This document shows, in pieces, positions 3,042 to 50,615 of a stretch of 52,974 nucleotides of DNA. The notes beneath the pieces were generated by a model. The model saw nothing but the letters and a program-made list of their open reading frames with translations, was not told where the DNA came from and made no database searches. Within the stretch, counting starts at the first letter, position 1. The number at the start of each line of letters is the position of its first letter. Source of the stretch: a virus (taxonomy: Duplodnaviria; Caudoviricetes); IMG/VR virus record IMGVR_UViG_3300048837_000214, positions 1-52,974 of that record; one strand, written 5' to 3'. The position numbers and the translations under genes were made by a program.

Positions 3042-3782
3042 TCAGTCAGCCAAACTCTCAAACTCTGCGGGCTTGTACACCCGCGCAATCCACCGCGCCA
3101 GGTCAAACGGAATCATCGCGATCTGTGCTGAGGCGGCCTTGCGGGCGGGGGACCTGGACGAGAATCGGCGCGTCATCGACTCGGGATCGTGCCACCACTC
3201 ACCGCCTTGCTTGATGCCTGTCACCGCCGCGCTCCGGAACGACCGCCCCGGCTTCCCGGTCTTCTCGTGTTCGTGGAAGTTGAAACCGGGGACCTTGCGA
3301 TGCAACGCCCGCGGCATCAGCGCCGGCACGTCGCCCCAGAAGTAGAACGACCCGTACCGCCACTTCGCCCGGCCCACCCAGGGCTGTGCGCCGCGAACAT
3401 TCTCCACCACCATCGGAATATGCCGCCCGGCCGCCTCGCACGCCTCCCGCTGGATGCGGAAGCAGGCGTCGAACAGCGCCGTCAGTTCGGCCACGTCGCG
3501 CGTCCCGTCCCGGTACTCCGCCGCCATCTGCTTCGCCCGGCTCCAAGGCATCGCCATGTAGGAGTACTTCTGGCACGGCGGCGAGGCGACAATCACATCG
3601 GCGTGGCGGAGCTGCGAGCCGTGGATGGTGAGCGCATCCTGGAGGACGAGTTGACCGGGATAGCCCCCGGCGCCGTAGTCGTGGCGCTCGATGTCAAACC
3701 CATAGCACTCGTACCCCTCGGCGAGGAATCCAGCCGACCAGCCGCCGAGGCCACAGAAAATGTCGATAACGACTGGCTTCAT
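3042..3782 (-). CDS. DNA cytosine-C5 methyltransferase-like protein (short phage type)
   Basis: Motif I IDIFCGLGG, motif IV ASPPCQ, motif VI VENV. Confidence 0.8.
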   Translation of the reverse strand: MKPVVIDIFCGLGGWSAGFLAEGYECYGFDIERHDYGAGGYPGQLVLQDALTIHGSQLRHADVIVASPPCQKYSYMAMPWSRAKQMAAEYRDGTRDVAELTALFDACFRIQREACEAAGRHIPMVVENVRGAQPWVGRAKWRYGSFYFWGDVPALMPRALHRKVPGFNFHEHEKTGKPGRSFRSAAVTGIKQGGEWWHDPESMTRRFSSRSPARKAASAQIAMIPFDLARWIARVYKPAEFESLAD

Positions 3783-6847: not shown

Positions 6848-7473
6848 GGGTCCACCCGCCTGAACTCGACGACCCAGCACCAGGGGTTCGACTCCCACCC
6901 GTAGCCGCGCTTGGCGTTGATGGAGTTCCAGAGTTCCGCGTAATTCATCTGCGGGGTGAAGTCCAACTCCCACGTCACGCCCTCTGCAAGTGCATCCTCT
7001 TCCGTGATGCTTCTAACCCGCTCGACGCGGACGCCAGTGACTTCGAGTGTGATGCGGCTGTACTTGCGCGGCATATAGATGGAGGGACGCCAGGTGTCAA
7101 TCGTTGCGAGTCCAACGCCGCCGCCAAAGCCGCCAGCCCCACTGACTTCGTAGGGAACGTGATGGCCGTCGTCTGAATCGGCGCGGTAAAAGCACCGATT
7201 GTGCTCAAAATCTTCAGCCCACGTTTCCCGCACCCAAAGCGTGTCGCCAGGATCGTAGGGGCAGTAGAGCCGCTGAACCGTCTTGTCCCCGTACTCGCCA
7301 CCCGCCTGTGGAACGTGGAGGTATGGCGTCGTGAGGCCATCGGGGAATGCCCGTTCCCAGTCAGGTTCCCCGTAAAAAGGGTTGTGCTTCACCACCCGCC
7401 GCGTCTGCGTCTTGCGCCCTTCGAGAATGGCCCGCACCATCGGGCCCTTGAAAAGAATAGGCTTCTCAGGCAT
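6841..7473 (-). CDS. ASCH/PUA-like phage protein
   Basis: KPILF..PMVRAILEGRKTQTRR, GDTLWVRETW, WRPSIYMPR..SRITLE and W..NPW.WVVEF are hallmark motifs of this common phage family. Confidence 0.8.
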   Translation of the reverse strand: MPEKPILFKGPMVRAILEGRKTQTRRVVKHNPFYGEPDWERAFPDGLTTPYLHVPQAGGEYGDKTVQRLYCPYDPGDTLWVRETWAEDFEHNRCFYRADSDDGHHVPYEVSGAGGFGGGVGLATIDTWRPSIYMPRKYSRITLEVTGVRVERVRSITEEDALAEGVTWELDFTPQMNYAELWNSINAKRGYGWESNPWCWVVEFRRVDPC

Positions 7474-7801
7474 GGTCACCTCCATCAATCCGCAGCTGCC
7501 CCACCAGTTCCCGGTACCGCGCCTCGGGCAGCATCAGACGCACGGTGCGGAGTTCGCTAAGGATCTGCCGCCACAGGGGACGGACGGCTGCCTCGGCGTC
7601 CTCCGCGGTCCTGACGAGGTAGTAGCCCGCGACGGCGCCGCGGGACGCCCCGATGGGCTCGCCGTCGTTTCGAAGTCGCTCGACGCTGGCTTTGACGGCC
7701 CGCGCCGACATGCGGGTCTTCAGCTGGATCTCCGCGATCGGCACCGGCGAGTCGTGACGGCCGGCGCGGATGAGATCGAGGATGTAGGGGTCGGTGGTCA
7801 T
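7466..7801 (-). CDS. winged-helix HTH protein
   Basis: IAEIQ...MSARAVK..VERLR..G.PI.S....GYY pattern. Confidence 0.7.
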   Translation of the reverse strand: MTTDPYILDLIRAGRHDSPVPIAEIQLKTRMSARAVKASVERLRNDGEPIGASRGAVAGYYLVRTAEDAEAAVRPLWRQILSELRTVRLMLPEARYRELVGQLRIDGGDHA

Positions 7802-12412: not shown

Positions 12413-12594
<182 letters not shown>

Positions 12595-12607
<13 letters not shown>

Positions 12608-25075: not shown

Positions 25076-25806
25076 ATAGCCACCCCTTCCGCCATCTGCC
25101 GCCACCGCGTCAGGTACTCGACGCTGGCCTTGTAGCCGCTGTGCTTGTTGATCTTGTCGGAGCAGTCCAGCAGGTCCACCCCCGCGACGATCGCGCCTGG
25201 CTCCTGCGGTCCGTGGCACCCAAGCATCCGATCCCACGAGGCGAACTTGTAGGGCCAGTCCACTGGGTCATGCCGCGAGTACGCCACGAGGATGCGGTTC
25301 GCCCGGTAGAGGTACGCGCCGTACCGGGAGGATGGCTCGAGGGCGTTATCCGAGACAGCAGGGGCCGACATGATGAGGTTGCGGCAATGGAGGCCCGCCC
25401 GCAGAGCCTCCAGTGCCACCATGCCGCCCAGGGAGTGCGTCTGCACGTCGATGGATGCGACGGGCAGGTGCCGGCAGACCTCTGCGATAAGACGCCCCGC
25501 TTTCCGCGCCCGATGACGGGCGAAGGTGAACCCGATCTTACGTTCGCTCAGCGGCATAAACGCGCCGATCACCACGTCATACGGCAGCGACCCTAGATCC
25601 TCCAGGTTCTGGAGCAGCACGCTGTACGCCCCCGCCGCGGCGTCCTCTGTGTTGTTGTAGCCGTGGAGCAGGAGTAGCACGCGCTTCCCGCTGAGGCGGG
25701 CGCTGACCTGCGTGGGCGTCAACACCTGCCCCATCGTTGTCCGCCAGTGCGGGGACGCGGCGAACCAGACCCGAGAACCATCGCGGCAGAGGTCGAGGTA
25801 CAGCAT
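25072..25806 (-). CDS. alpha/beta hydrolase (DUF900-like esterase/lipase)
   Basis: LLHGYN oxyanion motif, THSLG nucleophile elbow, S..D and H..Y acid/His candidates. Confidence 0.82.
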   Translation of the reverse strand: MLYLDLCRDGSRVWFAASPHWRTTMGQVLTPTQVSARLSGKRVLLLLHGYNNTEDAAAGAYSVLLQNLEDLGSLPYDVVIGAFMPLSERKIGFTFARHRARKAGRLIAEVCRHLPVASIDVQTHSLGGMVALEALRAGLHCRNLIMSAPAVSDNALEPSSRYGAYLYRANRILVAYSRHDPVDWPYKFASWDRMLGCHGPQEPGAIVAGVDLLDCSDKINKHSGYKASVEYLTRWRQMAEGVAI

Positions 25807-30200: not shown

Positions 30201-30506
30201 TGCGACGGTAACCGTAGTCCCCGCAGCGTCGGCCAATTCGACCTCTGTTTCGCTCGTCACGGACGCGATTGTCGTGAACAGGTTTGTGCCCGCGCTGCCA
30301 GCACCTTGCACCACGCATATATTCCCAACGTCAGATGCTGTGAATGCCGCGGTGGCCGAGGTTAGAGTTTTGTCTGCGGCGGTTATAGCGGCGTCGGTGA
30401 GTTGGATGCCGTCACCCTTGGCACCAAAGTCCTTGACGGATGGTTTTTCGCCAAGTTTGTCGGAGAGCGATCTGGCGACCGCCGATGCGTATGGAGTGTT
30501 GGGCAT
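27297..30506 (-). CDS. tailspike / receptor-binding protein with beta-helix depolymerase-like domain
   Basis: SVKDFGAKGDG...DDTAAI.AAI...P.G.Y pectate_lyase_3-type start; SPEG...A.PGSLY...K.TG.GNTGW tailspike motif; follows the hub gene. Confidence 0.8.
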   Translation of the reverse strand: MPNTPYASAVARSLSDKLGEKPSVKDFGAKGDGIQLTDAAITAADKTLTSATAAFTASDVGNICVVQGAGSAGTNLFTTIASVTSETEVELADAAGTTVTVAIATYGADDTAAILAAIASMATTKDALDWPGGIYIVTETLSSKENTHWIGRGFRQDNIFYSRLQQKNYTVIASTANPAIEVQPYPGTIIENIHFHGLGTETDIELFEVASYDKQVLVWAGRIDKPLLTTATDPVDYYNTGGAGVLYLRHCGFSGAENVGWGFYAYKLNGQSVLENLNFYHVGQAVDGDCDHYGAMSFQSDSVDITARNIHIICENIGTAIKCGSKKTESDALDRFYLGPAHLKFDYLLIEGSGEFAVREYHGIGNMWSNITFGQLNRVEIGESPFVSDYNIQTIWTNISSFFLGGVYLKARRILIDNWIAEGDGTTPFYYWYSGPRITGKRIALCPTGDKTESDWILDPLYNTPCAFSDQKLDSENLIPDFDSAAWTFTPGAPEAYRETATQYKLYDSGEIKAAVGGLIAGEVYSIGFRLKVMSIAYAHWITYTLTDDSATVILANQMGLAEVVTGTEYFILFQFVAPASGAILFSVKNEDGNQVEVDQPVLLRGPHTQASHLGYHWGVDMGTSEQGGWALPATMDNLAWRRNVTASGSAGPGASLVGRAANSTDKHVAIGLNTKYDGTHWISETDKMTNAFAALLASYVNGQVRLIIKGSTGAAPQKLTHAQLLDSVRWTMNEVGSADTYGVAGQQTVRAVKKSGATSASNVQYTEAHLDNGTDLWLHAYDGTAWWFYFKALYGDDKSVILNGAKITKDGAILPCDDQDSDCGLYAGTISPEGAKTAYPGSLYLQSNGTVWRKRTGAGNTGWLALGADDVVFGTITVEDTGEAGVAFVKVKAGSGQSTTALLEGQNAGGTKTFGVNADGDVICRKVDATGAITAQNHSTGNVLLLKASGGTELFAIDNYGYAYILNGLTIGSIGANKAVVTNGDSLTVGVTGANIASQALLTSLSATASGAVPTAIDTTGMSGDILTLANKINDIISALGAGGTVVRSVSVAAKNLATDRGIVTGLA

Positions 30507-30507
30507 T

Positions 30508-33342
30508 TCAATAGGAGATGGTCAGAGATACTTCAGCGGCCTTGGCACCCTTGGATGCGAACAGGGTATCGAGATAAACGGCCCCGGCGGTCAGTTCGCC
30601 GAACCACGGAAAGAGTCCAAGGTACTTGCACCCAGCCGGGGCCGTGGCCGCAAGCGAAAAATTATCCCAGTCGGTTTTTGACGCATCGAGGTCTGCCGTC
30701 TCCGTTGGCTCTACGCGAACGCCACCCGCATCGTAGAACGCGATGCGGGCCTGTGCCGTAGTGGCGGCGCTGTCGGCGTCGAATTTGTAGCGGCCCGTGA
30801 AAACGTACTGCTCGCCGGGGGCGCAGGGATAGGTGTCGTACCCGTCGTCTTGGAAGTCGAGCGGCTGGTGAAGCTCGCAGGGGCCGGCGTGCTCGATCTT
30901 GAGCGCCCGCCGCCCTGTGTCTTGGCCTGTCGTGACGATGGAATAGTCTGTCGGCGGGATGTCAAGGCCGTGCCAGCCGACCAGCCCGCGCTCGAAGCCG
31001 GGATTGCGCAGCAGGTTGCCGCCTGTCGTGCCGGCGACTTCGATGTCGTAGATGGGCCGCGTGGGCAACTCATCCGGTGCCACGTCGTCAGGCTTCGGCC
31101 CGGTGGCCGTGTTGTACATCGAGTCGGTGGTCGAAACCCACTCGACATCGATCGACCAGTCGGAGTTCAGCCGCCATGACTGGACGCGGAACTCGCCGGC
31201 GCCACCCGGCATCTCGGGATGCGTGAGCGAGCAGACCATGCCAGGTTCCACGTTCAACGCCAGGATGGTGGTGCGGAACGACCCGCGCCGCGCCGCCAGT
31301 TTCTCGGCAGCGGAGACGCCGCCCATCGCCTCTCGGAATGCGACCGTGCAGACTCGCGCGGCCTGAGACTTCGACGTGACGCCCAGCAGGTTGATGTTGG
31401 CCTTGAGCGTCTGGCCTGACGCCGCAATGTGGTCGTCATCCTTGAGCGTCAGGGTGTTGCCCTGATAGGCGTAGTCGCCATCAGCGAAGCCGACCGTCAG
31501 ATGGTTGTACTCGGGCGTGCGGGACGAAAGCCGGAGCGAGTTGTAAATGATGTTGCCGGTGGTGAACGCCTCGACCGTGGACGAGTTGATGCGGATGCCG
31601 ACCTTCAACTTGCCGGCCGCGATGGTGTAGTAGCCCAGGCAGCCCGCCAGGATGTCGCGGATCCAGTCGGTGAGCGAGCGTTCCTCGCTGCCCACGATGC
31701 CGGTGAACGTGAACTGGGTCTCAGTCCCGTCGCCGATCAGTTTATCGACGGTCGTATCACAAATCGCCGCAGCCGCAACAGCCGATGCTGCGTCAAATAC
31801 CGCTTCCTGTGCCGCCTGCGCGGCCTGAGACAAGCCGAGAGCATTCAGGTAGGTGTTGATGCAGATCCAGATCCGATTCGTCAGGGAGGCGGTCCAGGCG
31901 CGCGCGTAGCCGCTTTCCTCTTCCTCGTCTGCCGTCCATGTCCAACCACCCAGCCCTTGAGCGACGTAGGCGACCATCTGACGCTCGCCGGGGCGCAGCG
32001 CCTGCACGCCCTTTTCGTCAGAGCGGCGGATCTGAAGGAAGGCCGCGCCCGTGGGTCCGGAGTCTGATTGCGGCCAGGACGTGCCTACGGCGTCGAGCGC
32101 AAACCAGTTCGAACCCTGGTCCGGAGAACTATTTGTCAGAGCCTCGCTGCCGGTCGCGGGGTTCCCGCCGTAGGATCGGCGAAGACCCAGCGCGCCGGGG
32201 CCGTGGTTCGGCTGATTGTCGAGCGTGTGGCCTGTGCCGTAGCCGCTGATCGGGCCGCGGCCGACCACCCCGAGGGCCGCGTAAAACTCGGATTCGTCGC
32301 GCCCGGCGATGACGTCGCAGGGAACGGGCAGCGGGTTCACGGAGTCGTTGACCCAGACGTCTTTCAGCGCCTTGCCGTAGGCGGTATCATTTGATACCGA
32401 AGTGGCCGTGAACCGGGCGATGCCCTTCTTGCCGCCCACACTGACGGGCTGCGCTCCGACCTCAAAGCCATCCTGCCGGGTAATCGTGCGCCGCGGGTAG
32501 GCCAACCGCAGGGCAGATACGCCGTCGCGGGCCTGGATGCGGAACTCGCCCAGTGCATCCATGTCCCAGGACTGAATGTGGCCCGCCCACAGATTCACCA
32601 GCGCCTCGGTTTCGACGTGGTAGAGACTGAACGCAATCTGCGCCCGGTCCAGATCCACGGCGTTGACGAGGCCCGTAAACACGCGGTCGGCGTTGCCGAG
32701 GGTGAACGACGCGGTGTCGGACGCCTCGCCGAGCGACTGCGAGATGCCGTCCCATGACAGAATGCGCGGCTGGTAAAGGTCGCCGCCGATGGTCACGCGG
32801 CGGTCGGACAGGTGGATCGTGTGGACGCCTACCGTGATGGTGACGAGCGGAATGACCTCCTGAACCTGCTCGAGCAGCGCGGTGGCCAGGCCCTCGGATG
32901 GAAATCGCGAAAGCGTCTCGGTGACATCGTAGGTCGGGGCGGTACCGGGTTCCTCAATGACGTCGATGGACGCCGCCCACTGGCCATCCTGCGCCCGCTG
33001 AAGCGCGGCCGCGGGAGCCTCAAGCCTGACCGTGAGGTTCGTTGACGTTCCATCGTTCTCCTTCCACGCGATCGTGAAGGGCTGGTATGAGCCCTTGCGG
33101 GCCTCAAGGAACGCGACCAGCGCGGCCTTTTCGGTCGAGTTCATCGCCGCGCAGTTGAGGCTCAGGCGCCGCAAGCCGTCACCGCGGTAGAACCGCTGCT
33201 CGACCTTGCAGTCCTGCGTGGCAAACTGATGCACCACGACCTCTGGCTCGTAGCGACGCGCCGTCCCGAAATGGACGGTGGCCGGGAACGTGCCGCTGGC
33301 AGCGATCACCGGGATTTCGACGGGGCCAATGTACTCGGGCAT
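30508..33342 (-). CDS. tail hub / central tail tip protein with C-terminal carbohydrate-binding module
   Basis: Follows Dit. N-terminal Dit-like repeat (AFLEARKGSYQPF), phage-tail hub pattern (GVTS..QA.R...VEPG.V) and GNLLRNPGFERG CBM-like domain. Confidence 0.78.
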   Translation of the reverse strand: MPEYIGPVEIPVIAASGTFPATVHFGTARRYEPEVVVHQFATQDCKVEQRFYRGDGLRRLSLNCAAMNSTEKAALVAFLEARKGSYQPFTIAWKENDGTSTNLTVRLEAPAAALQRAQDGQWAASIDVIEEPGTAPTYDVTETLSRFPSEGLATALLEQVQEVIPLVTITVGVHTIHLSDRRVTIGGDLYQPRILSWDGISQSLGEASDTASFTLGNADRVFTGLVNAVDLDRAQIAFSLYHVETEALVNLWAGHIQSWDMDALGEFRIQARDGVSALRLAYPRRTITRQDGFEVGAQPVSVGGKKGIARFTATSVSNDTAYGKALKDVWVNDSVNPLPVPCDVIAGRDESEFYAALGVVGRGPISGYGTGHTLDNQPNHGPGALGLRRSYGGNPATGSEALTNSSPDQGSNWFALDAVGTSWPQSDSGPTGAAFLQIRRSDEKGVQALRPGERQMVAYVAQGLGGWTWTADEEEESGYARAWTASLTNRIWICINTYLNALGLSQAAQAAQEAVFDAASAVAAAAICDTTVDKLIGDGTETQFTFTGIVGSEERSLTDWIRDILAGCLGYYTIAAGKLKVGIRINSSTVEAFTTGNIIYNSLRLSSRTPEYNHLTVGFADGDYAYQGNTLTLKDDDHIAASGQTLKANINLLGVTSKSQAARVCTVAFREAMGGVSAAEKLAARRGSFRTTILALNVEPGMVCSLTHPEMPGGAGEFRVQSWRLNSDWSIDVEWVSTTDSMYNTATGPKPDDVAPDELPTRPIYDIEVAGTTGGNLLRNPGFERGLVGWHGLDIPPTDYSIVTTGQDTGRRALKIEHAGPCELHQPLDFQDDGYDTYPCAPGEQYVFTGRYKFDADSAATTAQARIAFYDAGGVRVEPTETADLDASKTDWDNFSLAATAPAGCKYLGLFPWFGELTAGAVYLDTLFASKGAKAAEVSLTISY

Positions 33343-45523: not shown

Positions 45524-45745
45524 TCACAGGCCCTTCGAAGTCGCCATGCGGATCTGTCTGGGCCGCGTACTGGTTGTCGTGACCGAAGAGATCTCGCTGT
45601 CGATCCGCGCCAGCGCCTTCTCCATCTGGTCAACGGCCTGCCAGCGAGTCGTCTTGTCGCCGTCGCTCATCTCGGAACGGGCCAGCGCGATATCAGAGAT
45701 CAGTGAATCGCGCTTCGCTTGAAGTTGTTCCAGCGTCAAAGCCAT
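45524..45745 (-). CDS. head-tail adaptor gpW-like
   Basis: 73 aa right after terL; helix-hairpin-helix pattern ending in SKGL. Confidence 0.75.
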   Translation of the reverse strand: MALTLEQLQAKRDSLISDIALARSEMSDGDKTTRWQAVDQMEKALARIDSEISSVTTTSTRPRQIRMATSKGL

Positions 45746-47799
45746 CAGAGCGTCATCCTTCCCATGATTCGAGGCGCGGGAGGCGCTGGGGCCTGTGCGG
45801 GACGGTCGGTCAGTGATTCGGTGAACCGAGGAGCCGATTGCATTGAGCGCCCGAGCCGAAGCTCAATGGACGCCCAGTCGTGCTCCTGAAACCGATCCAT
45901 CCCGCACAAGTACGCGACAGCCAGGCTGTACCCGGCCAAATCGAGAGGTTCGTTGCGCGGCGAGTCCTTCCGCCACTCCACCAAGCCCTTCGCCGTGACG
46001 TGCCGGCTTTCAGCGGTCAGGCCCTGGAAGAAATCGAACGTGTAATCCGGGTAATGGTAGTAGCCAACCGGATACTCGCCGTTATCGACGGGCTTGTCGA
46101 GCCGGAGGGCGTCATAAACGCACTGCTTCGCGTAGGACGAGCCCACCTTCACGATCCGGAGGCCACGGCGCTTGCGGGCCGCGTCGGTGGTGGACACCGT
46201 GTCAATCAGTTTCGTAAAACTGGGGCCACCCTTTAGCGGCACGACGGTCCTGTCCGACAGCACAAACGAGCCGGTCGGACCATGCAGCGGCTGCGGGTAA
46301 CGCCGGCAGAAGTCGTAAACCGGATCGGCGTTGAAGCCAGTGTCCACGCCGACCGCCCGGATCGGCAACGTCCCGCCGCCCTCGACCGGCCACTCCTGCG
46401 CAATCAACTCGGCAAACCGTTCCCACGGCTCGGGCTCCGACGTGCGGCACGGAGTCAACTCGCCCTTCAGGTTGCGGCGCATCGGCTGAATGACTTCGTA
46501 GTAGACACTCCACCGTTGATTCCGGCGCCCAAAGGCCACCAGTTCGAACTCAATGCGGTCGGCCTGAATGTCGGCGGCTCCCACCAGCAGCAGCCCGCCC
46601 TTCGGGACCACGCCAATCTCGTAGGACTCGCGCCGGTCGGACAGCCGCCGCGGGTCCGGCGCATCGCCCTTTTCCTTCCACGCCTCGGCAAATACTGTGT
46701 TCACAATGCCCTTCAGGACGCGGGTATCGCCCTGTGCCAGTTCCCAGTCCTTTACGAGGTCTTCCCATCCGTACCAGCCCATCGGCGAGTAGTAGGCTGG
46801 CAGATGGAAGCTGGCAGACAGGGCCTTGCTCATCTGCCGGAAGATCGGCTCAAGCCCAATCCGCTCGGCCGGCGAGAATCCGTTCTCCATGAGGTCGGGC
46901 CGCCCGGCGCACGCCAGCCATGTCCCCTCGGCCAGCATCCGGGTCTTGTGCCGCTCAGTGATGTGGCCGCCGCACTCACGGCACTCGTAGTAAACCTGGG
47001 CTCGCCGGCTGGCGGCCTCGGTTGCCGGTTCCCCTTCGACACGCTTCGGCCAACGGAACTGAGCAAACACGAACCGCTGGAAGTGGCCGCACAGCGGGCA
47101 GGGCACAAAGTAGTATCGCTGGTCGCCCTTCAAAAACTCCCGATGAATCCGCGACGGCTCAAGCGTCGGCGTCGACACCATGAAGTGCTTGCCATTGGGG
47201 AAGTTGGTCGAGCGCCGGCTCAACAGGAACAGTGGATCGCCCTCACCCTCGGCATCCCCTACGAACCCGTCAACCTCATCCGAGAACTTGTTCGCCGCCG
47301 GGGTCGAGCGCATCTTCTTGGCGCTCGTGGACCACGCAATCTTGATCGTGGCGGCAGTCCCAGCGATTTTCTTGAGGTACGTCGTGTTGCCGGTGCCCTT
47401 GCGCTTGGTGTCCGTGATCTTGCCGGCCAGCGCGGGCGTGTCGTCGACCAACTGGGTCAGCCGCTGGTTCGACCACTCCTTCGCAACACCCTCGCTCGGC
47501 AACGTGACGATGGTCGGCGCCGGGTTCTGGTCGATGATGTAGCCCATCCAGTTCAGACCGATCCTGGTCCCGCCCGTCTGCGATCCTTTTTCGAGGACGA
47601 TATCCTTGGCCGGATGGGACGGCGACAGGCAGTCCATGATGCCGCGGGCGTAAGGCGTTCGGGCGACCCGATAATGGCCGCGCTCAGGGGAATCCCCGCC
47701 GAGCCAGACGTTCTTCTCTGACCAATCCGCCACCGACAGGTCGGGCGGCGGAACCCAGGCTCTGTTCGCGGCCTGGTTGACTGTCTGCCGTGCTGTCAT
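45745..47799 (-). CDS. terL: terminase large subunit (lambda gpA family)
   Basis: RTPY, K.SQ.GGT Walker A, DEVD Walker B, VSTPT, GDQR...VPCP.CG, AD.Q.DR, VDTG and RNEPLD motifs. Confidence 0.93.
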   Translation of the reverse strand: MTARQTVNQAANRAWVPPPDLSVADWSEKNVWLGGDSPERGHYRVARTPYARGIMDCLSPSHPAKDIVLEKGSQTGGTRIGLNWMGYIIDQNPAPTIVTLPSEGVAKEWSNQRLTQLVDDTPALAGKITDTKRKGTGNTTYLKKIAGTAATIKIAWSTSAKKMRSTPAANKFSDEVDGFVGDAEGEGDPLFLLSRRSTNFPNGKHFMVSTPTLEPSRIHREFLKGDQRYYFVPCPLCGHFQRFVFAQFRWPKRVEGEPATEAASRRAQVYYECRECGGHITERHKTRMLAEGTWLACAGRPDLMENGFSPAERIGLEPIFRQMSKALSASFHLPAYYSPMGWYGWEDLVKDWELAQGDTRVLKGIVNTVFAEAWKEKGDAPDPRRLSDRRESYEIGVVPKGGLLLVGAADIQADRIEFELVAFGRRNQRWSVYYEVIQPMRRNLKGELTPCRTSEPEPWERFAELIAQEWPVEGGGTLPIRAVGVDTGFNADPVYDFCRRYPQPLHGPTGSFVLSDRTVVPLKGGPSFTKLIDTVSTTDAARKRRGLRIVKVGSSYAKQCVYDALRLDKPVDNGEYPVGYYHYPDYTFDFFQGLTAESRHVTAKGLVEWRKDSPRNEPLDLAGYSLAVAYLCGMDRFQEHDWASIELRLGRSMQSAPRFTESLTDRPAQAPAPPAPRIMGRMTL

Positions 47800-48425
47800 T
47801 TGGACTTTGCCATTGACCGTTCCGTCATGAACTGCCGAACGTACTTCTCAAGCACCAACCGCGTGGTCCGTTCCTCGGATCCCAGTTCTGCCGCCACCTC
47901 CCGGTGGACGAGCAGTGGCCAGTTCAGCAGCGCCTCGGCATCGGCGCGAAACCGGGCCTCGGTTGCCGACTCCACCTCGGCGCGGTCCACCAGCCGGCGC
48001 TCCTCTTTGTCATTCCGCAGCCGGTCCCGGCGAATCCGCTCCAAAAGGGCTTCCCGCTCCAGATCGGCCTTGCTCTGCTCCCTGCTCGGCTCGACCTGCT
48101 TCGCAATCGCGGCCCGCTTCGGCTTGGCGACTGCCGCCAACTTCCGGGGCTTTGGCTCCACGACAGGCGCGACAGCGACCGGCGCAACGGGCTTCGCCGC
48201 CACTCGATCGCCCCGCCGCGGGACGCCGCCTTGCTTCGCTCCGAGGCTGTGACTCAGTGATGCCCGGCACTCATCCAAGTCGAAAAGCCCGTTGGCTAGG
48301 GGCCGAATCCTGCCGGCCGCCTTGTATTTGACGACCATCGGCGGGCTGACACCCAACTCGGCGGCAAGCTGTTTCCCGTTTAGCATCAATGACTTAGGTT
48401 CCGCCGAAGTGGTTAATCGGCCCAT
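47796..48425 (-). CDS. terS: terminase small subunit (Nu1-like)
   Basis: N-terminal HTH LAAELGVSPPMV, coiled coil and LVDRAEV motif; overlaps the terL start. Confidence 0.8.
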   Translation of the reverse strand: MGRLTTSAEPKSLMLNGKQLAAELGVSPPMVVKYKAAGRIRPLANGLFDLDECRASLSHSLGAKQGGVPRRGDRVAAKPVAPVAVAPVVEPKPRKLAAVAKPKRAAIAKQVEPSREQSKADLEREALLERIRRDRLRNDKEERRLVDRAEVESATEARFRADAEALLNWPLLVHREVAAELGSEERTTRLVLEKYVRQFMTERSMAKSK

Positions 48426-48533
48426 CGGTTAATCTTTCGACGCGCCAAAGTCGGTTAACTGCCCGCCACCCCTGAAAATTGGCGTATGTGTGCAAGGTAA
48501 CCACCCGCCCGCTAGATCCCGTCGGGAGTACCT
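48411..48533 (-). promoter_or_regulatory. putative cos packaging site
   Basis: Minus strand: AGGTACT (cosQ-like; lambda GGGTCCT), 16 nt, GGGCGGGTGGTT (lambda cohesive end GGGCGGCGACCT), then three plus-strand GGTTAA copies (48411, 48427, 48453) as possible TerS sites. Directly upstream of terS with a gpA-type terL. Confidence 0.5.
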
Positions 48534-48857
48534 TTGCAAATACTTGAATATGTCGATTTGACTCGCCTGGCTCGAGGCCGGCCGCGGTATCCGCCAAGGC
48601 GCCGGTCAGCCTGGCCGCCGGCCGCCGATTGCTACCGGCCGGTGCCTGCCAGCTCCGCGGTACCGTCTGTTTGCCGCGGCCGCCTCATGCTGGGCTCGAG
48701 CACCGCGCCCCTACTCGAGCTCGGCCGTGGTTACCGGCCGCCGAACACCCCCCCCTACCCCCCCCTCACCCAAGGGTCTACTCCAAAACAAAAACCCCCT
48801 GTCGGGGGCTACGGGAAGAGATTTTCGTCAGCCGCGATCTGACGTGCTATCGCAAAC

Positions 48858-48886
48858 AGGATGCCACTCTTTTGTTTCGGTGTCAA
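48858..48886 (-). promoter_or_regulatory. leftward (late) sigma70-type promoter
   Basis: TTGACA, 17 nt (ending TGG), CATCCT, pointing toward terS. Confidence 0.6.
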
Positions 48887-48941
48887 GCGCGGGAATTTGG
48901 CCGGCCTCGGAGCTCGCCTGGACTCGGCCTGGCCGCCTCAC

Positions 48942-49001
48942 TTTTTTTTACGTCTGATGTCGATTTTCCTTGACTCATGCTTAGCACTATGAGAGTATTG
49001 T
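48942..49001 (+). promoter_or_regulatory. rightward promoter candidate with inverted repeat
   Basis: T8 tract, TTGACT at 48970 and CTCAT-N10-ATGAG palindrome in the spacer; the -10 is ambiguous. Confidence 0.4.
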
Positions 49002-49057
49002 GTAGAGGCTACTTACCAGAAGCAGCCAGACGGCGCAGAGCGCTGAGAGGAGAGGAA

Positions 49058-49102
49058 ATGTTGACCGATGGATCGCTGGTCTACAACCTGAAACTGACGT
49101 AA
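49058..49102 (+). CDS. 14-aa mini-ORF MLTDGSLVYNLKLT
   Basis: Strong GAGAGGAGAGG SD directly before the ATG. Confidence 0.4.
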   Translation: MLTDGSLVYNLKLT

Positions 49103-49183
49103 CCCCGGCGGGCTGGCGACAGCCCCGCCCGTCCTGGCCTTCGCAGAGGCCGGAATAGGCGACAGCCGAGAGAGGAGAGAGAT

Positions 49184-49375
49184 ATGAGTACCGCACCATG
49201 GGATCAGCCGACAAACGGCACAACCGTAACGATTTGGGAGAGCGAATATTGCCCACTGCCAGCGGGCGCGACAATCCACCACTCTGCGCCAGTCTCTCGC
49301 AGGATCAACGGAGTAGGTGATGTTGGGGTCCGGTTGCTAATCTCGTGGCCGAATCCAGACTACCGCCCACAGTAA
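49184..49375 (+). CDS. small hypothetical protein
   Basis: GAGAGGAGAG SD; 63 aa; followed by a GC hairpin. Confidence 0.6.
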   Translation: MSTAPWDQPTNGTTVTIWESEYCPLPAGATIHHSAPVSRRINGVGDVGVRLLISWPNPDYRPQ

Positions 49376-49475
49376 ACCGCCCCTCCGGGCGGACCTGTGC
49401 CAGTGGTGGCCGGCAGAGGCCGTCCCCGGCCCCCCGCTGTTCGCAGACGGCGGAGGGCTGGAGATCAGATAGTGC

Positions 49476-49971
49476 GGCTCGTCCAGACGGGCGGGCCGCG
49501 TCAGTGTATCTAGGCTCGTCCATTGTGGCTCGTCCAGTGGATGTGATGCCTCGTCCATTACCTCGCCTCGTCCATTGAGAGGCTGGGCGAACGCGTAGCC
49601 GTGTCCATTGGGCGCAGAAAGGATTGACATGAAGAGAAAACCTATGCCCCGCGCCAGCCGCGGGCGACTCGGCGGCCTGGCGCGATCCGCGAACCTGTCG
49701 CCAGCAGAACGCAGGGAGGGAGCTTCGGCCGCGGCCAGGTCGCGCTGGGCTGACGTGACTCCGGAGCAGCGGGCGGAGATCACCCGCAAGATGGTCGAGG
49801 GCCGGAAGCGCTGGATCGAGGCGAAGGCGGCGGCGAAGGCGCAGGCAGCGGAGGCCCAGACAGGCTGAAGCCGGCCTCGTCCATCAGACGTCGGGCAGCC
49901 TCGTCCATTGATGCGCCGAGGTGATCGCCTCGTCCATCACCCTGCCTCGTCCAGTGGCTTGCCTCGTCCAT
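49476..49971 (+). repeat. two clusters of G(G/C)CTCGTCCA(T/G) direct repeats
   Basis: Copies at 49476, 49513, 49527, 49548, 49565 and 49874, 49898, 49927, 49944, 49961, all on the same strand; degenerate copy near 49600. Confidence 0.92.
49629..49868 (+). CDS. small basic helical protein (GRxGGxAR...L.P.ERxE.A..AA..RW family), putative nucleic-acid binder
   Basis: GAAAGGA SD, ATG at 49629; duplicated LSPAERRE/VTPEQRAE...RW unit. Confidence 0.72.
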   Translation: MKRKPMPRASRGRLGGLARSANLSPAERREGASAAARSRWADVTPEQRAEITRKMVEGRKRWIEAKAAAKAQAAEAQTG

Positions 49972-50209
49972 CGGCCTCCAACTCGCGGATCTTGCGCTCC
50001 CACCACGTCAGGCCGTCGGCCTCGACCATGCCGCCCTGAAGCGTGATGGGCTTGGAGTTGCCGTCCTCATCCGTGGATGTGAACTCAATCTCTATCGGTC
50101 GGTCAATGTGCGTCAAGTCGAGGCCGTCCACCGGCTCAAGTTTGAACTCCACATTGATCGGCCCCGGCTGCTCATAGCCGCGCGTCGTCGGGTTGCCTGT
50201 CTCGTCCAT
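49937..50209 (-). CDS. hypothetical acidic protein
   Basis: TAATG-coupled to the upstream gene; end of the early block. Confidence 0.55.
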   Translation of the reverse strand: MDETGNPTTRGYEQPGPINVEFKLEPVDGLDLTHIDRPIEIEFTSTDEDGNSKPITLQGGMVEADGLTWWERKIRELEADGRGKPLDEAG

Positions 50210-50469
50210 TAGATCTCACTTCCTCGCGCGCCCACCAGTGCGTACACCGGCCCAGTCGGCAAGTCCTGCGTGATACAGTAGCCCGTCCGCTCCAGGTGGA
50301 TCAAACCCGTCAGCCGCTCGATGACCACGCAGGCCTTGAGGTGCCCGCGTCTCCCGCGGACAGGCTTCAGGCGCCGTAATGTGACCAGTTTCTCGGCCTC
50401 GTCCGACGGCAGCCGCTGGATCATTTGGGCCTTGCCCTCGATGCAGATGTAGACAGGGACCTTAGACAT
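50209..50469 (-). CDS. hypothetical protein
   Basis: GGAGG RBS, coupled stop/start. Confidence 0.65.
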   Translation of the reverse strand: MSKVPVYICIEGKAQMIQRLPSDEAEKLVTLRRLKPVRGRRGHLKACVVIERLTGLIHLERTGYCITQDLPTGPVYALVGARGSEI

Positions 50470-50615
50470 CAGCCCTCCGCTCGCAGAACGACCGGCAGTG
50501 GTGCCCCAGATGAGATAGGCGCGGCTGCCGGTCGTGGTGTCTGGTTATGCCGGCATCCTACACCGAATCCGCCGGCGAAACAAGAGGGTATGGAAATGTT
50601 GTGGCGCGGGGTCAT
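50469..50615 (-). CDS. hypothetical small protein
   Basis: ATGA overlap; fills the gap. Confidence 0.4.
   Translation of the reverse strand: MTPRHNISIPSCFAGGFGVGCRHNQTPRPAAAPISSGAPLPVVLRAEG

Follow-up and report, generated by a model that had tools for sequence, protein, structure and literature searches.

Eleven one-strand repeats around a small basic gene near the packaging genes of a Caudoviricetes virus, most likely protein-binding operators

What reads a short DNA word that is repeated on one strand, at irregular distances, on both sides of a single small gene? The question is raised by the virus record IMGVR_UViG_3300048837_000214 (Duplodnaviria; Caudoviricetes), which was analysed over its full length of 52,974 bp (the window). 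Five copies of the octamer CTCGTCCA precede and five follow an open reading frame (ORF) encoding a basic protein of 79 amino acids (aa). An earlier note on this DNA had described the ten repeats as a protein-binding array near the packaging end and had offered five functions for it. Eleven exact copies were found on this strand, and they are read here, tentatively, as operator-like protein-binding sites whose most likely reader would be the 79-aa protein encoded in the same cassette.

Copies, strand and extent of the repeat

The array and the gene that it encloses comprise the following features.

49476-49578, + strand: cluster 1, five sites of the form G-S-CTCGTCCA-K-Y upstream of the 79-aa gene
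49478, 49515, 49529, 49550, and 49567, + strand: starts of the cluster 1 cores
49598-49610, + strand: degenerate site GTGTCCATTGG, located after cluster 1 and before the ribosome-binding site of the 79-aa gene
49601-49608, + strand: degenerate copy GTGTCCAT, read from the sequence
49629-49868, + strand: gene of the 79-aa basic protein (isoelectric point, pI, 11.7), with three predicted helices and two tandem units of ~20 aa
49874-49973, + strand: cluster 2, five sites where the 79-aa gene and a 90-aa ORF converge with their 3' ends
49876, 49900, 49929, 49946, and 49963, + strand: starts of the cluster 2 cores
50199-50211 (core 50201-50208), + strand: eleventh exact copy, missed in the earlier note

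The ten repeats, in two clusters of five on one strand around the 79-aa ORF, stand exactly at the positions given in the earlier note. The irregular spacing of 14-37 bp and the mixed reading frames that it described were likewise borne out, with start-to-start spacings of 37, 14, 21, and 17 in cluster 1 and 24, 29, 17, and 17 in cluster 2 and with copies in all three frames. The final two copies of cluster 2 lie inside the 3' end of the 90-aa ORF, and the eleventh copy overlaps the ATG of this ORF (49937-50209, - strand) and the stop of the ORF at 50209-50469 (- strand).

Counting both strands, 16 exact copies of CTCGTCCA occur in the window against 2.67 expected, the latter being the mean of 100 dinucleotide shuffles (standard deviation 1.68, maximum 7), none of which reached 16. 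All 11 copies on the + strand fall within 730 bp (49478-50208), and the five copies on the - strand are scattered at 3155, 13357, 31578, 37790, and 47905. About 1.3 copies are expected per strand per genome, so the rough composition estimate of one octamer per strand in the earlier note was right, and a Poisson estimate for at least 10 copies in 500 bp is ~3e-26. The motif is clearly not evenly common across the genome, and in a genome-wide scan the array was the only irregular dense array of any 8-mer. Cluster 1 starts 1.05 kb from the start of the small terminase gene (terS).

The conserved unit exceeds the octamer and can be written as G-N-CTCGTCCA-K-Y, ~12 bp. A G at position -2 is invariant in all 11 copies while position -1 is variable; position +1 is T in eight copies and G in three, and position +2 is T in seven, C in three, and A in one. 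With an invariant G beyond a variable base and a bias at +1 and +2, the site is therefore asymmetric and ~12 bp long. Such an extent of information, interrupted by one variable base next to the invariant G, is common where proteins recognise DNA.

The same letters could also act at the RNA level, either as AUGGA motifs that sequester a CsrA-type protein and lie in the 3' portion of the long - strand operon or as C-rich motifs of an untranslated region in the + strand mRNA. Eight of the 11 copies read AUGGA on the - strand, a terminator-like hairpin of that strand follows cluster 1, and sponge RNAs are known for irregular spacing. Such a role is nevertheless highly improbable: predicted folds of both strands were no better than those of shuffled sequences (z 0.39 and -0.41), Rfam gave no match at E<=1, and the ten invariant positions far exceed what RNA-binding proteins of this kind need.

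Several known kinds of repeat were tried and rejected. CRISPR would need longer spacers, and cas genes are absent; for attP arm-type sites no integrase was found, and for transposon ends the clusters are direct and not inverted. DnaA boxes share only GTCCA with the repeat, their CACA end being absent.

Conservation in relatives and a dispensable cassette

Related sequence was found on contigs of four metagenome runs from four studies (groundwater, unspecified, soil, and wastewater); no RNA run was among those listed with such sequence. Two of these contigs (X2 record 12 and X6 record 19) span cluster 2 with <95% identity. Between 49869 and 49953 their listed differences amount to six substitutions and six indel events, all outside the four cores covered, and the chance of all 12 events landing in spacers is ~0.003. 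In X2 record 12 the listed indels account for all 16 gap letters, while six of the 15 substitutions fall outside the differences listed. The cores thus appear to be under selection while the spacers vary. Together with the lack of an RNA family or fold signal, this bears out the view of the earlier note that the repeat acts at the DNA level.

Further copies of G-S-CTCGTCCA occur in unrelated contexts at the loose ends of three contigs, of X6 and X8. After 49134, the loose end of X6 carries a copy ~20 nt before the ribosome-binding site of a 63-aa gene, and the X8 loose ends before 49567 and before 49900 carry more copies with different flanks. As the copies persist in unrelated contexts, the word is kept while its surroundings change.

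The region around the array is laid out as follows.

48890-50203: accessory cassette of 1.3 kb, with the 63-aa gene, cluster 1, the 79-aa gene, cluster 2, and the 90-aa ORF, all of which are skipped in the X1 relative
49184-49375, + strand: 63-aa ORF with its own ribosome-binding site, no family, conserved in relatives
49937-50209, - strand: 90-aa acidic ORF, pI 4.3, no family, with motif copies on both sides
48793-48810, - strand: strong terminator-like hairpin with a T run
49377-49392, - strand: terminator-like hairpin, 85 bp past cluster 1 in the - direction
47796-48425 (called start 48386), - strand: terS, from PHROGs and Pfam
45745-47799, - strand: lambda-type gpA large terminase gene (terL), directly after terS, from Pfam and PHROGs

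In the diverged X1 contig, whose flanks are ~88-91% identical, position 48889 is joined to 50204 with three other letters between them. The eleventh copy forms the right-hand boundary of the stretch missing there, and the join lies ~80 bp from the strong - strand terminator at 48810-48793. Since this relative skips the whole unit, the 1.3-kb unit behaves as a dispensable cassette. The 90-aa ORF is the final gene of the long - strand gene array, and judged from the sequences compared, the cassette behaves as if it had been placed after the last gene of the long operon and ahead of that operon's terminator. In relatives that are free of the cassette, the hairpin at 48793-48810 would end the long operon.

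The loss of the whole region from a relative with such similar flanks is hard to square with an essential packaging site. A packaging signal, whether a terS-bound extended cosB or pac-like region or a brake that the terminase reads during translocation, ahead of the terminal cut at cos, is accordingly considered clearly unlikely. Its appeal lies in the location of the array, which stands in the only large non-coding gap of the genome (48430-49936), ~1.05 kb upstream of terS, and some pac sites, such as that of P1, have a cleavage region flanked by arrays of short direct repeats. Lambda, a phage with the gpA type of terminase, also has repeated protein-binding sites in the non-coding region upstream of terS. 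Its cosB (R3-I1-R2-R1), however, is essential and holds three gpNu1 sites within ~200 bp of the terS gene, whereas the array has 11 sites at the far larger distance of 1.05 kb, brackets a gene, and is missing from one relative. Other short repeats (two copies of GGTTAATC) stand directly at the terS start, which also speaks against the array as the packaging signal.

Distant terminase relatives gave no support to a packaging role either, as a comparable irregular array was found at none of their 18 loci. Relatives of terL were found at seven viral loci with 33-35% identity, the closest isolated phages having 35-37% identity, and relatives in the terS alignment at three metagenome loci, seven viral loci, and one genome locus. 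Among the 18 loci, L012 has a regular 12-bp tandem repeat and L010 one 8-mer in four copies. The repeat of L012 (1095-1533; terL 33% identity) consists of ~37 copies of GCGACGCTGTTC and lies ~4.5 kb upstream of the terminase gene.

Searches for the array outside the close relatives were likewise negative. A scan of viral contigs for three cores 6-30 nt apart returned at least 118 stretches, and none of those listed was the array of a relative, in a collection from which near-identical records may be missing. In 113 of the stretches listed, every spacing was a multiple of three, as expected of tandem repeats in coding sequence, and five were regular or near-regular tandem arrays. Two copies of GCCTCGTCCA within 3-32 nt occurred in 69 stretches, of which six had a spacing that was not a multiple of three, each with two copies, and none was the array of a relative. 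The triple-core pattern matched four times in 401 Acidobacteriota genomes, always in regular repeats with spacings in multiples of three, and the DNA from 48400 to 50300 had no match among isolated phages.

Some further sequence features lie between the terminase genes and the array. The two GGTTAATC copies (48411-48460) are 16 bp apart and are the only two in the genome; GGTTAAC comes next after the pair, and these may be terminase or promoter sites. From the gene map, cos is expected in the gap at 48430-48890. A block of 73-78% GC with C runs and several GGCCGCC words (48560-48770) lies between terS and the - strand terminator and may contain cos. The 10-mer GGCGACAGCC occurs twice, ~45 bp apart (49112-49175), in the stretch that separates a 14-codon ORF from the 63-aa ORF, and one relative has insertions and deletions exactly at this pair. 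A scan of 48300-50600 for sigma-70-like promoters gave no call.

The 79-aa protein and competing readers of the sites

An AGGA ribosome-binding site lies 5 nt ahead of the ATG of the enclosed gene, whose GC content at third codon positions is 0.80, and homologues of its product share 95% and 81% identity. The isolated substitutions listed for relatives (49703, 49706, 49742, and 49862) all fall at third codon positions, so the gene is real; the single deletion seen among relatives is in frame (6 nt).

In a HMMER scan of 1.84 billion representatives, 60 proteins matched at E<=1e-3, mostly of 56-105 aa, and most of them carry the same two tandem units (G-R-L-G-G-x-A-R ... L-T-P-E-E-R-S-E ... A-R-W). 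The ~20-aa unit defines a large unnamed family. Of the 23 larger representatives that were scanned, five contain GIY-YIG, two HNH, one VRR-NUC, and one a Cro/C1 helix-turn-helix (HTH) domain. The unit is repeated two to six times after the domain in the five GIY-YIG proteins and likewise follows the VRR-NUC domain, a position at which homing endonucleases carry modular DNA-binding units. One member of 1322 aa has 18 units, no nuclease domain, and below-stretch Pfam matches to NTP_transf_8 and PerC. The NUMOD3 family of Pfam matched one of the 23, below cutoff (20.1 vs 20.4 bits). Sequence searches of PDB gave nothing significant and NCBIfam nothing, the matches in the ESM Atlas (score <=0.90) were all to unnamed clusters, some of them viral or from Acidobacteriota, and a search of viral contigs gave no relatives of the 79-aa protein. 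Isolated phages searched by tblastn with this protein and with P0073 also gave no match, the low-complexity filter being the probable cause.

An AlphaFold model from 29 sequences (predicted local distance difference test, pLDDT, 94.6) has helices at residues 8-21, 25-41, and 45-78 and no beta-strand. The top match in an exhaustive structural alignment was 5d23_A, the STPR domain of Bombyx mori FMBP-1 on 13-bp DNA (Z 5.4, root-mean-square deviation 2.9 A, 61 of 64 residues aligned, 25% identity). It was the only match with a low deviation, and the likeness is weak. In STPR, tandem helices follow the major groove at 4 bp per helix (PMC4856987, in excerpt). Both proteins have tandem helices of ~20 residues, each with a T/S-P-E-type cap, and the monomer of FMBP-1 occupies ~12-13 bp (PMC4856987, in excerpt), which matches the length and asymmetry of the sites described here. 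FMBP-1 differs in being an animal transcription factor and in having repeats of 23 aa, as opposed to ~20-21 aa. On this comparison, three helices at 4 bp each would give an asymmetric site of 12 bp. The 79-aa protein is thus a predicted DNA binder and a candidate reader of the sites.

A mechanism can be proposed from these elements. The eleven sites would be asymmetric ~12-bp operators bound sequence-specifically, and the cassette would be a backward-facing accessory unit between the last gene of a single long operon and the packaging region. The 79-aa protein might lay three consecutive helices along the major groove of one site, ~4 bp each, as a monomer, which would explain the asymmetry and the single direction and would remove any need for helical phasing. 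Five sites over the 5' region of its own gene would allow autoregulation. The five sites at the 3' end of the gene, with the one on the start of the 90-aa gene, could form a nucleoprotein block that shields the small genes of the + strand from the long operon converging on them from the - strand. Motif copies stand directly 5' of + strand genes in two cases, cluster 1 before the 79-aa gene and the X6 copy before the 63-aa gene. The array is a selected, polar set of real ~12-bp sites in a dispensable cos-proximal cassette, most likely protein-binding operators. Of the proposal in the earlier note, the DNA-level polar array near the packaging end stands and protein binding is probable, while its five functions stay at the level of proposals. 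If the 79-aa protein does read the sites, a widespread and so far uncharacterised small DNA-binding module would be paired with a defined 12-bp target. Such a pair would be an entry point to how the module, which also occurs in the tails of homing endonucleases, recognises DNA.

Several observations weigh against the 79-aa protein as reader of the operators. STPR prefers AT-rich DNA and reads its shape (PMC4856987, in excerpt), and this preference is unlike the GC-rich site found here. The tool calls a Z of 5.4 common for helical models, and Foldseek found nothing at E<=0.001 in PDB (nor among viral models). The Pfam family STPRs (PF21107) scored 13.9 bits on the 79-aa protein, against a cutoff of 27 (E 0.075), and reached E<=1 in one of 29 family members. 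Family members occur in 19 of 121 sampled Acidobacteriota genomes, at 25 loci, and none of these loci has at least four copies of any 8-mer, or at least five of any 7-mer, in 600 bp; neither of the two viral loci has an array next to the family gene. In the X8 relative, the loose end at 49623 continues from the 3' part of cluster 1 and the ribosome-binding-site region into a different ORF start, and the array can therefore travel without the 79-aa gene. Simple operator function, finally, does not require the one-way orientation of all 11 copies. The flanking arrays, whose absence from homologous genes would by the earlier note count against its proposal, are thus missing from the distant homologues, and with the X8 context this means that the array is not a family-wide companion of the 79-aa gene.

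A viral locus with a family gene, L248, carries eight GAAGCAC heptamers 1.0-1.5 kb downstream of that gene.

The same modularity suits operators for a different regulator, encoded elsewhere in the phage or in the host, with the 79-aa gene being merely one regulated gene among the small + strand genes; this is rather unlikely. The array stands before a different ORF in one relative, a copy precedes the 63-aa gene in another, and distant homologues of the 79-aa protein lack arrays. The phage also encodes further small proteins of no assigned family, one of which (7466-7801) matches an HTH weakly. Yet no repressor or other regulator family was recognised in the genome scans, the + strand has no site elsewhere in the genome, and the 79-aa protein is the only strongly basic predicted DNA binder of the cassette.

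The family assignments also bear on the centromere-like site suggested in the earlier note, taken here as a partition site for a plasmid-like carrier state, with the two clusters bound by a small adaptor. This is very unlikely: scans of the ORFs with PHROGs or Pfam gave no ParA, ParM, TubZ-type motor, ParB, or ribbon-helix-helix adaptor, and a partition ATPase is thus missing from them. ParR is a ribbon-helix-helix dimer, unlike the 79-aa protein, whose model is all-helical and free of beta-strand, and a ParM-like motor gene was not found. The repeats are neither contiguous nor phased, and there is no sign of a lysogenic or plasmid state. In favour of partition are the lack of an integrase in the phage and the form of the array, which resembles R1 parC/ParR and the parS-L/parS-R of actinobacteriophages. 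R1 parC likewise has ten short direct repeats in two sets of five, of 11 bp each, around the par promoter, and is bound by ParR, a small protein that autoregulates and builds a nucleoprotein complex on parC (PMC2241845, in excerpt). The R1 repeats, however, abut and flank a 39-bp promoter, whereas spacers of 6-29 bp and a whole flanked gene are found here. RedRock and Miko, with their parABS systems, also carry 8-bp direct-repeat arrays in two loci of a phage genome. In RedRock, which has no integrase and replicates extrachromosomally, ParB recognises two parS loci with eight direct copies of an 8-bp motif each; a further locus, made up of five direct repeats, lies immediately downstream of repA in Miko and Rachaly (PMC7157519, in excerpt). 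These phages encode parA and parB, unlike the flanked 79-aa and 90-aa ORFs, which match neither family.

Replication-origin iterons, or a copy-control (handcuffing) array with the iterons-gene-iterons layout of the P1 and F replicons, appear highly doubtful, with only a slight chance of being correct. In P1 (oriR-repA-incA) and F (incB-repE-incC), clusters of the same repeated word stand on both sides of a gene whose product binds them. The layout here is alike, with two same-sense clusters bracketing a gene in the sole irregular dense 8-mer array of a phage that encodes a DnaD-like initiator or loader. P1 RepA iterons are also mentioned in PMC7157519 (in excerpt). The enclosed protein, in contrast, belongs to no Rep family, an AT-rich unwinding element is absent between and beside the clusters (GC 55-78% over 49370-50000), the helicase is of the SF2 DEAD type and not a primase-helicase initiator, and one relative lacks the cassette. 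The origin reading is further weakened because a better candidate lies inside the initiator gene, ~5.8 kb from the clusters.

2131-2979, - strand: DnaD-like initiator or loader, from PHROGs and Pfam
2500-2690: candidate replication origin

In this second region, 5 of the 8 CTGCCCT copies in the genome lie within 142 bp (2547-2688), plus TGCCCTC variants, on one strand. AT-rich stretches lie on both sides, and the cluster comes just after the N-terminal domain of the initiator gene, a layout as in the O gene of lambda.

Orientation, genome ends and the gene map

The strict one-way orientation of the copies hints at a directional process, be it transcription, translocation, or resection. One such process was named in the earlier note with Chi-like polar sites. 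The copies would then be a host recombination-hotspot or nuclease-attenuation octamer, 5'-TGGACGAG-3' on the terminase-sense strand, stacked near the terminase-distal end, where they would switch an entering enzyme of the RecBCD/AddAB type from degradation to recombination. This is an unlikely but serious candidate. The invariant 8-nt core, the shared orientation of all 11 copies, their irregular spacing, and the unrelated sequence of the spacers would all fit. With cos placed from the gene map, the array occupies the terminase-distal side of the gap that precedes terS, and each of the 11 copies takes the form TGGACGAG on the terminase-sense strand. Drawn as in lambda, with the terminase at the left, the array lies at the right end with the motif on the top strand, the active orientation described for lambda, LLS, and MD8 (PMC12315714, in excerpt). 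The terminase is of the lambda gpA type, and the cassette is dispensable, as an accessory protective feature could be.

LLS of E. coli and MD8 of P. aeruginosa are lambdoid cos phages without a Rec module and, as here, have a one-strand octamer, Chi, concentrated toward the terminase-distal end (PMC12315714, in excerpt). In MD8, all 32 'Chi' octamers are on one strand and form intergenic mini-clusters, for example five in 130 bp. The MD8 octamer, however, also occurs genome-wide, with sites spread over ~40 kb, is the most frequent of its genome, and is abundant in the host. In the window, by comparison, the active strand has all its copies within 730 bp and none outside, the other strand has five, and the octamer ranks 72nd in frequency on the active strand. 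Conservation beyond 8 nt, with the invariant G across a variable base, also speaks against Chi-like sites. In a Bryobacterales metagenome-assembled genome, a candidate host by terL at 43% identity only, the octamer occurs 693 times against 782 for the reversed control. This terL match was found in one of 401 Acidobacteriota genomes. Of the Chi-like suggestion, the orientation fits, while its host side was compared with that one candidate genome. If the word is Chi-like, it would reveal a recombination hotspot of an uncultivated host lineage and would widen the class of phages with terminal Chi clusters, which was described only recently.

The dense mini-clusters of MD8 (L249) are found besides a broad right-end gradient and are largely intergenic, with three octamers in 140 bp (25173-25312) and five in 130 bp (30426-30556).

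A more speculative extension of the preferred reading, that of operators bound by the 79-aa protein, is rather doubtful. The 79-aa protein and its cognate GC-rich 12-bp word would then form, through the one-way array, a polar nucleoprotein barrier at whichever genome end is first to exit the capsid, gating early transcription, DNA entry, or end resection, and the module in the tails of GIY-YIG/HNH endonucleases would be a programmable code of ~4 bp per helix. On either reading, Chi-like or operator, the locus would be one more backward-facing accessory cassette beside terminase genes with sequence words on one strand only.

The record is complete, with 63% GC, and its first and last 127 bp are identical, presumably as a circular-assembly overlap. 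Almost all genes of the window lie on the - strand of the PHROGs and Pfam map, which besides the genes given above includes the following.

Structural genes: portal, protease, decoration, major head, large tail and fibre proteins, and endolysin
Recombination and replication genes: SF2 DEAD-type helicase, two methyltransferases, and a PAPS-reductase-like protein
Across the record junction: DUF5131 protein, then small ORFs down to 49937

Among the ORFs scanned, the integrase, repressor, ParA, and ParB families were all absent, and no tRNA and no Rfam family were found. The ORF at 12413-12607 (- strand, 64 aa) consists almost wholly of a hexamer repeated ~30 times (AGCCGG when read on the + strand; 84% matching, 12415-12593) and presumably encodes a dipeptide-repeat protein or linker.

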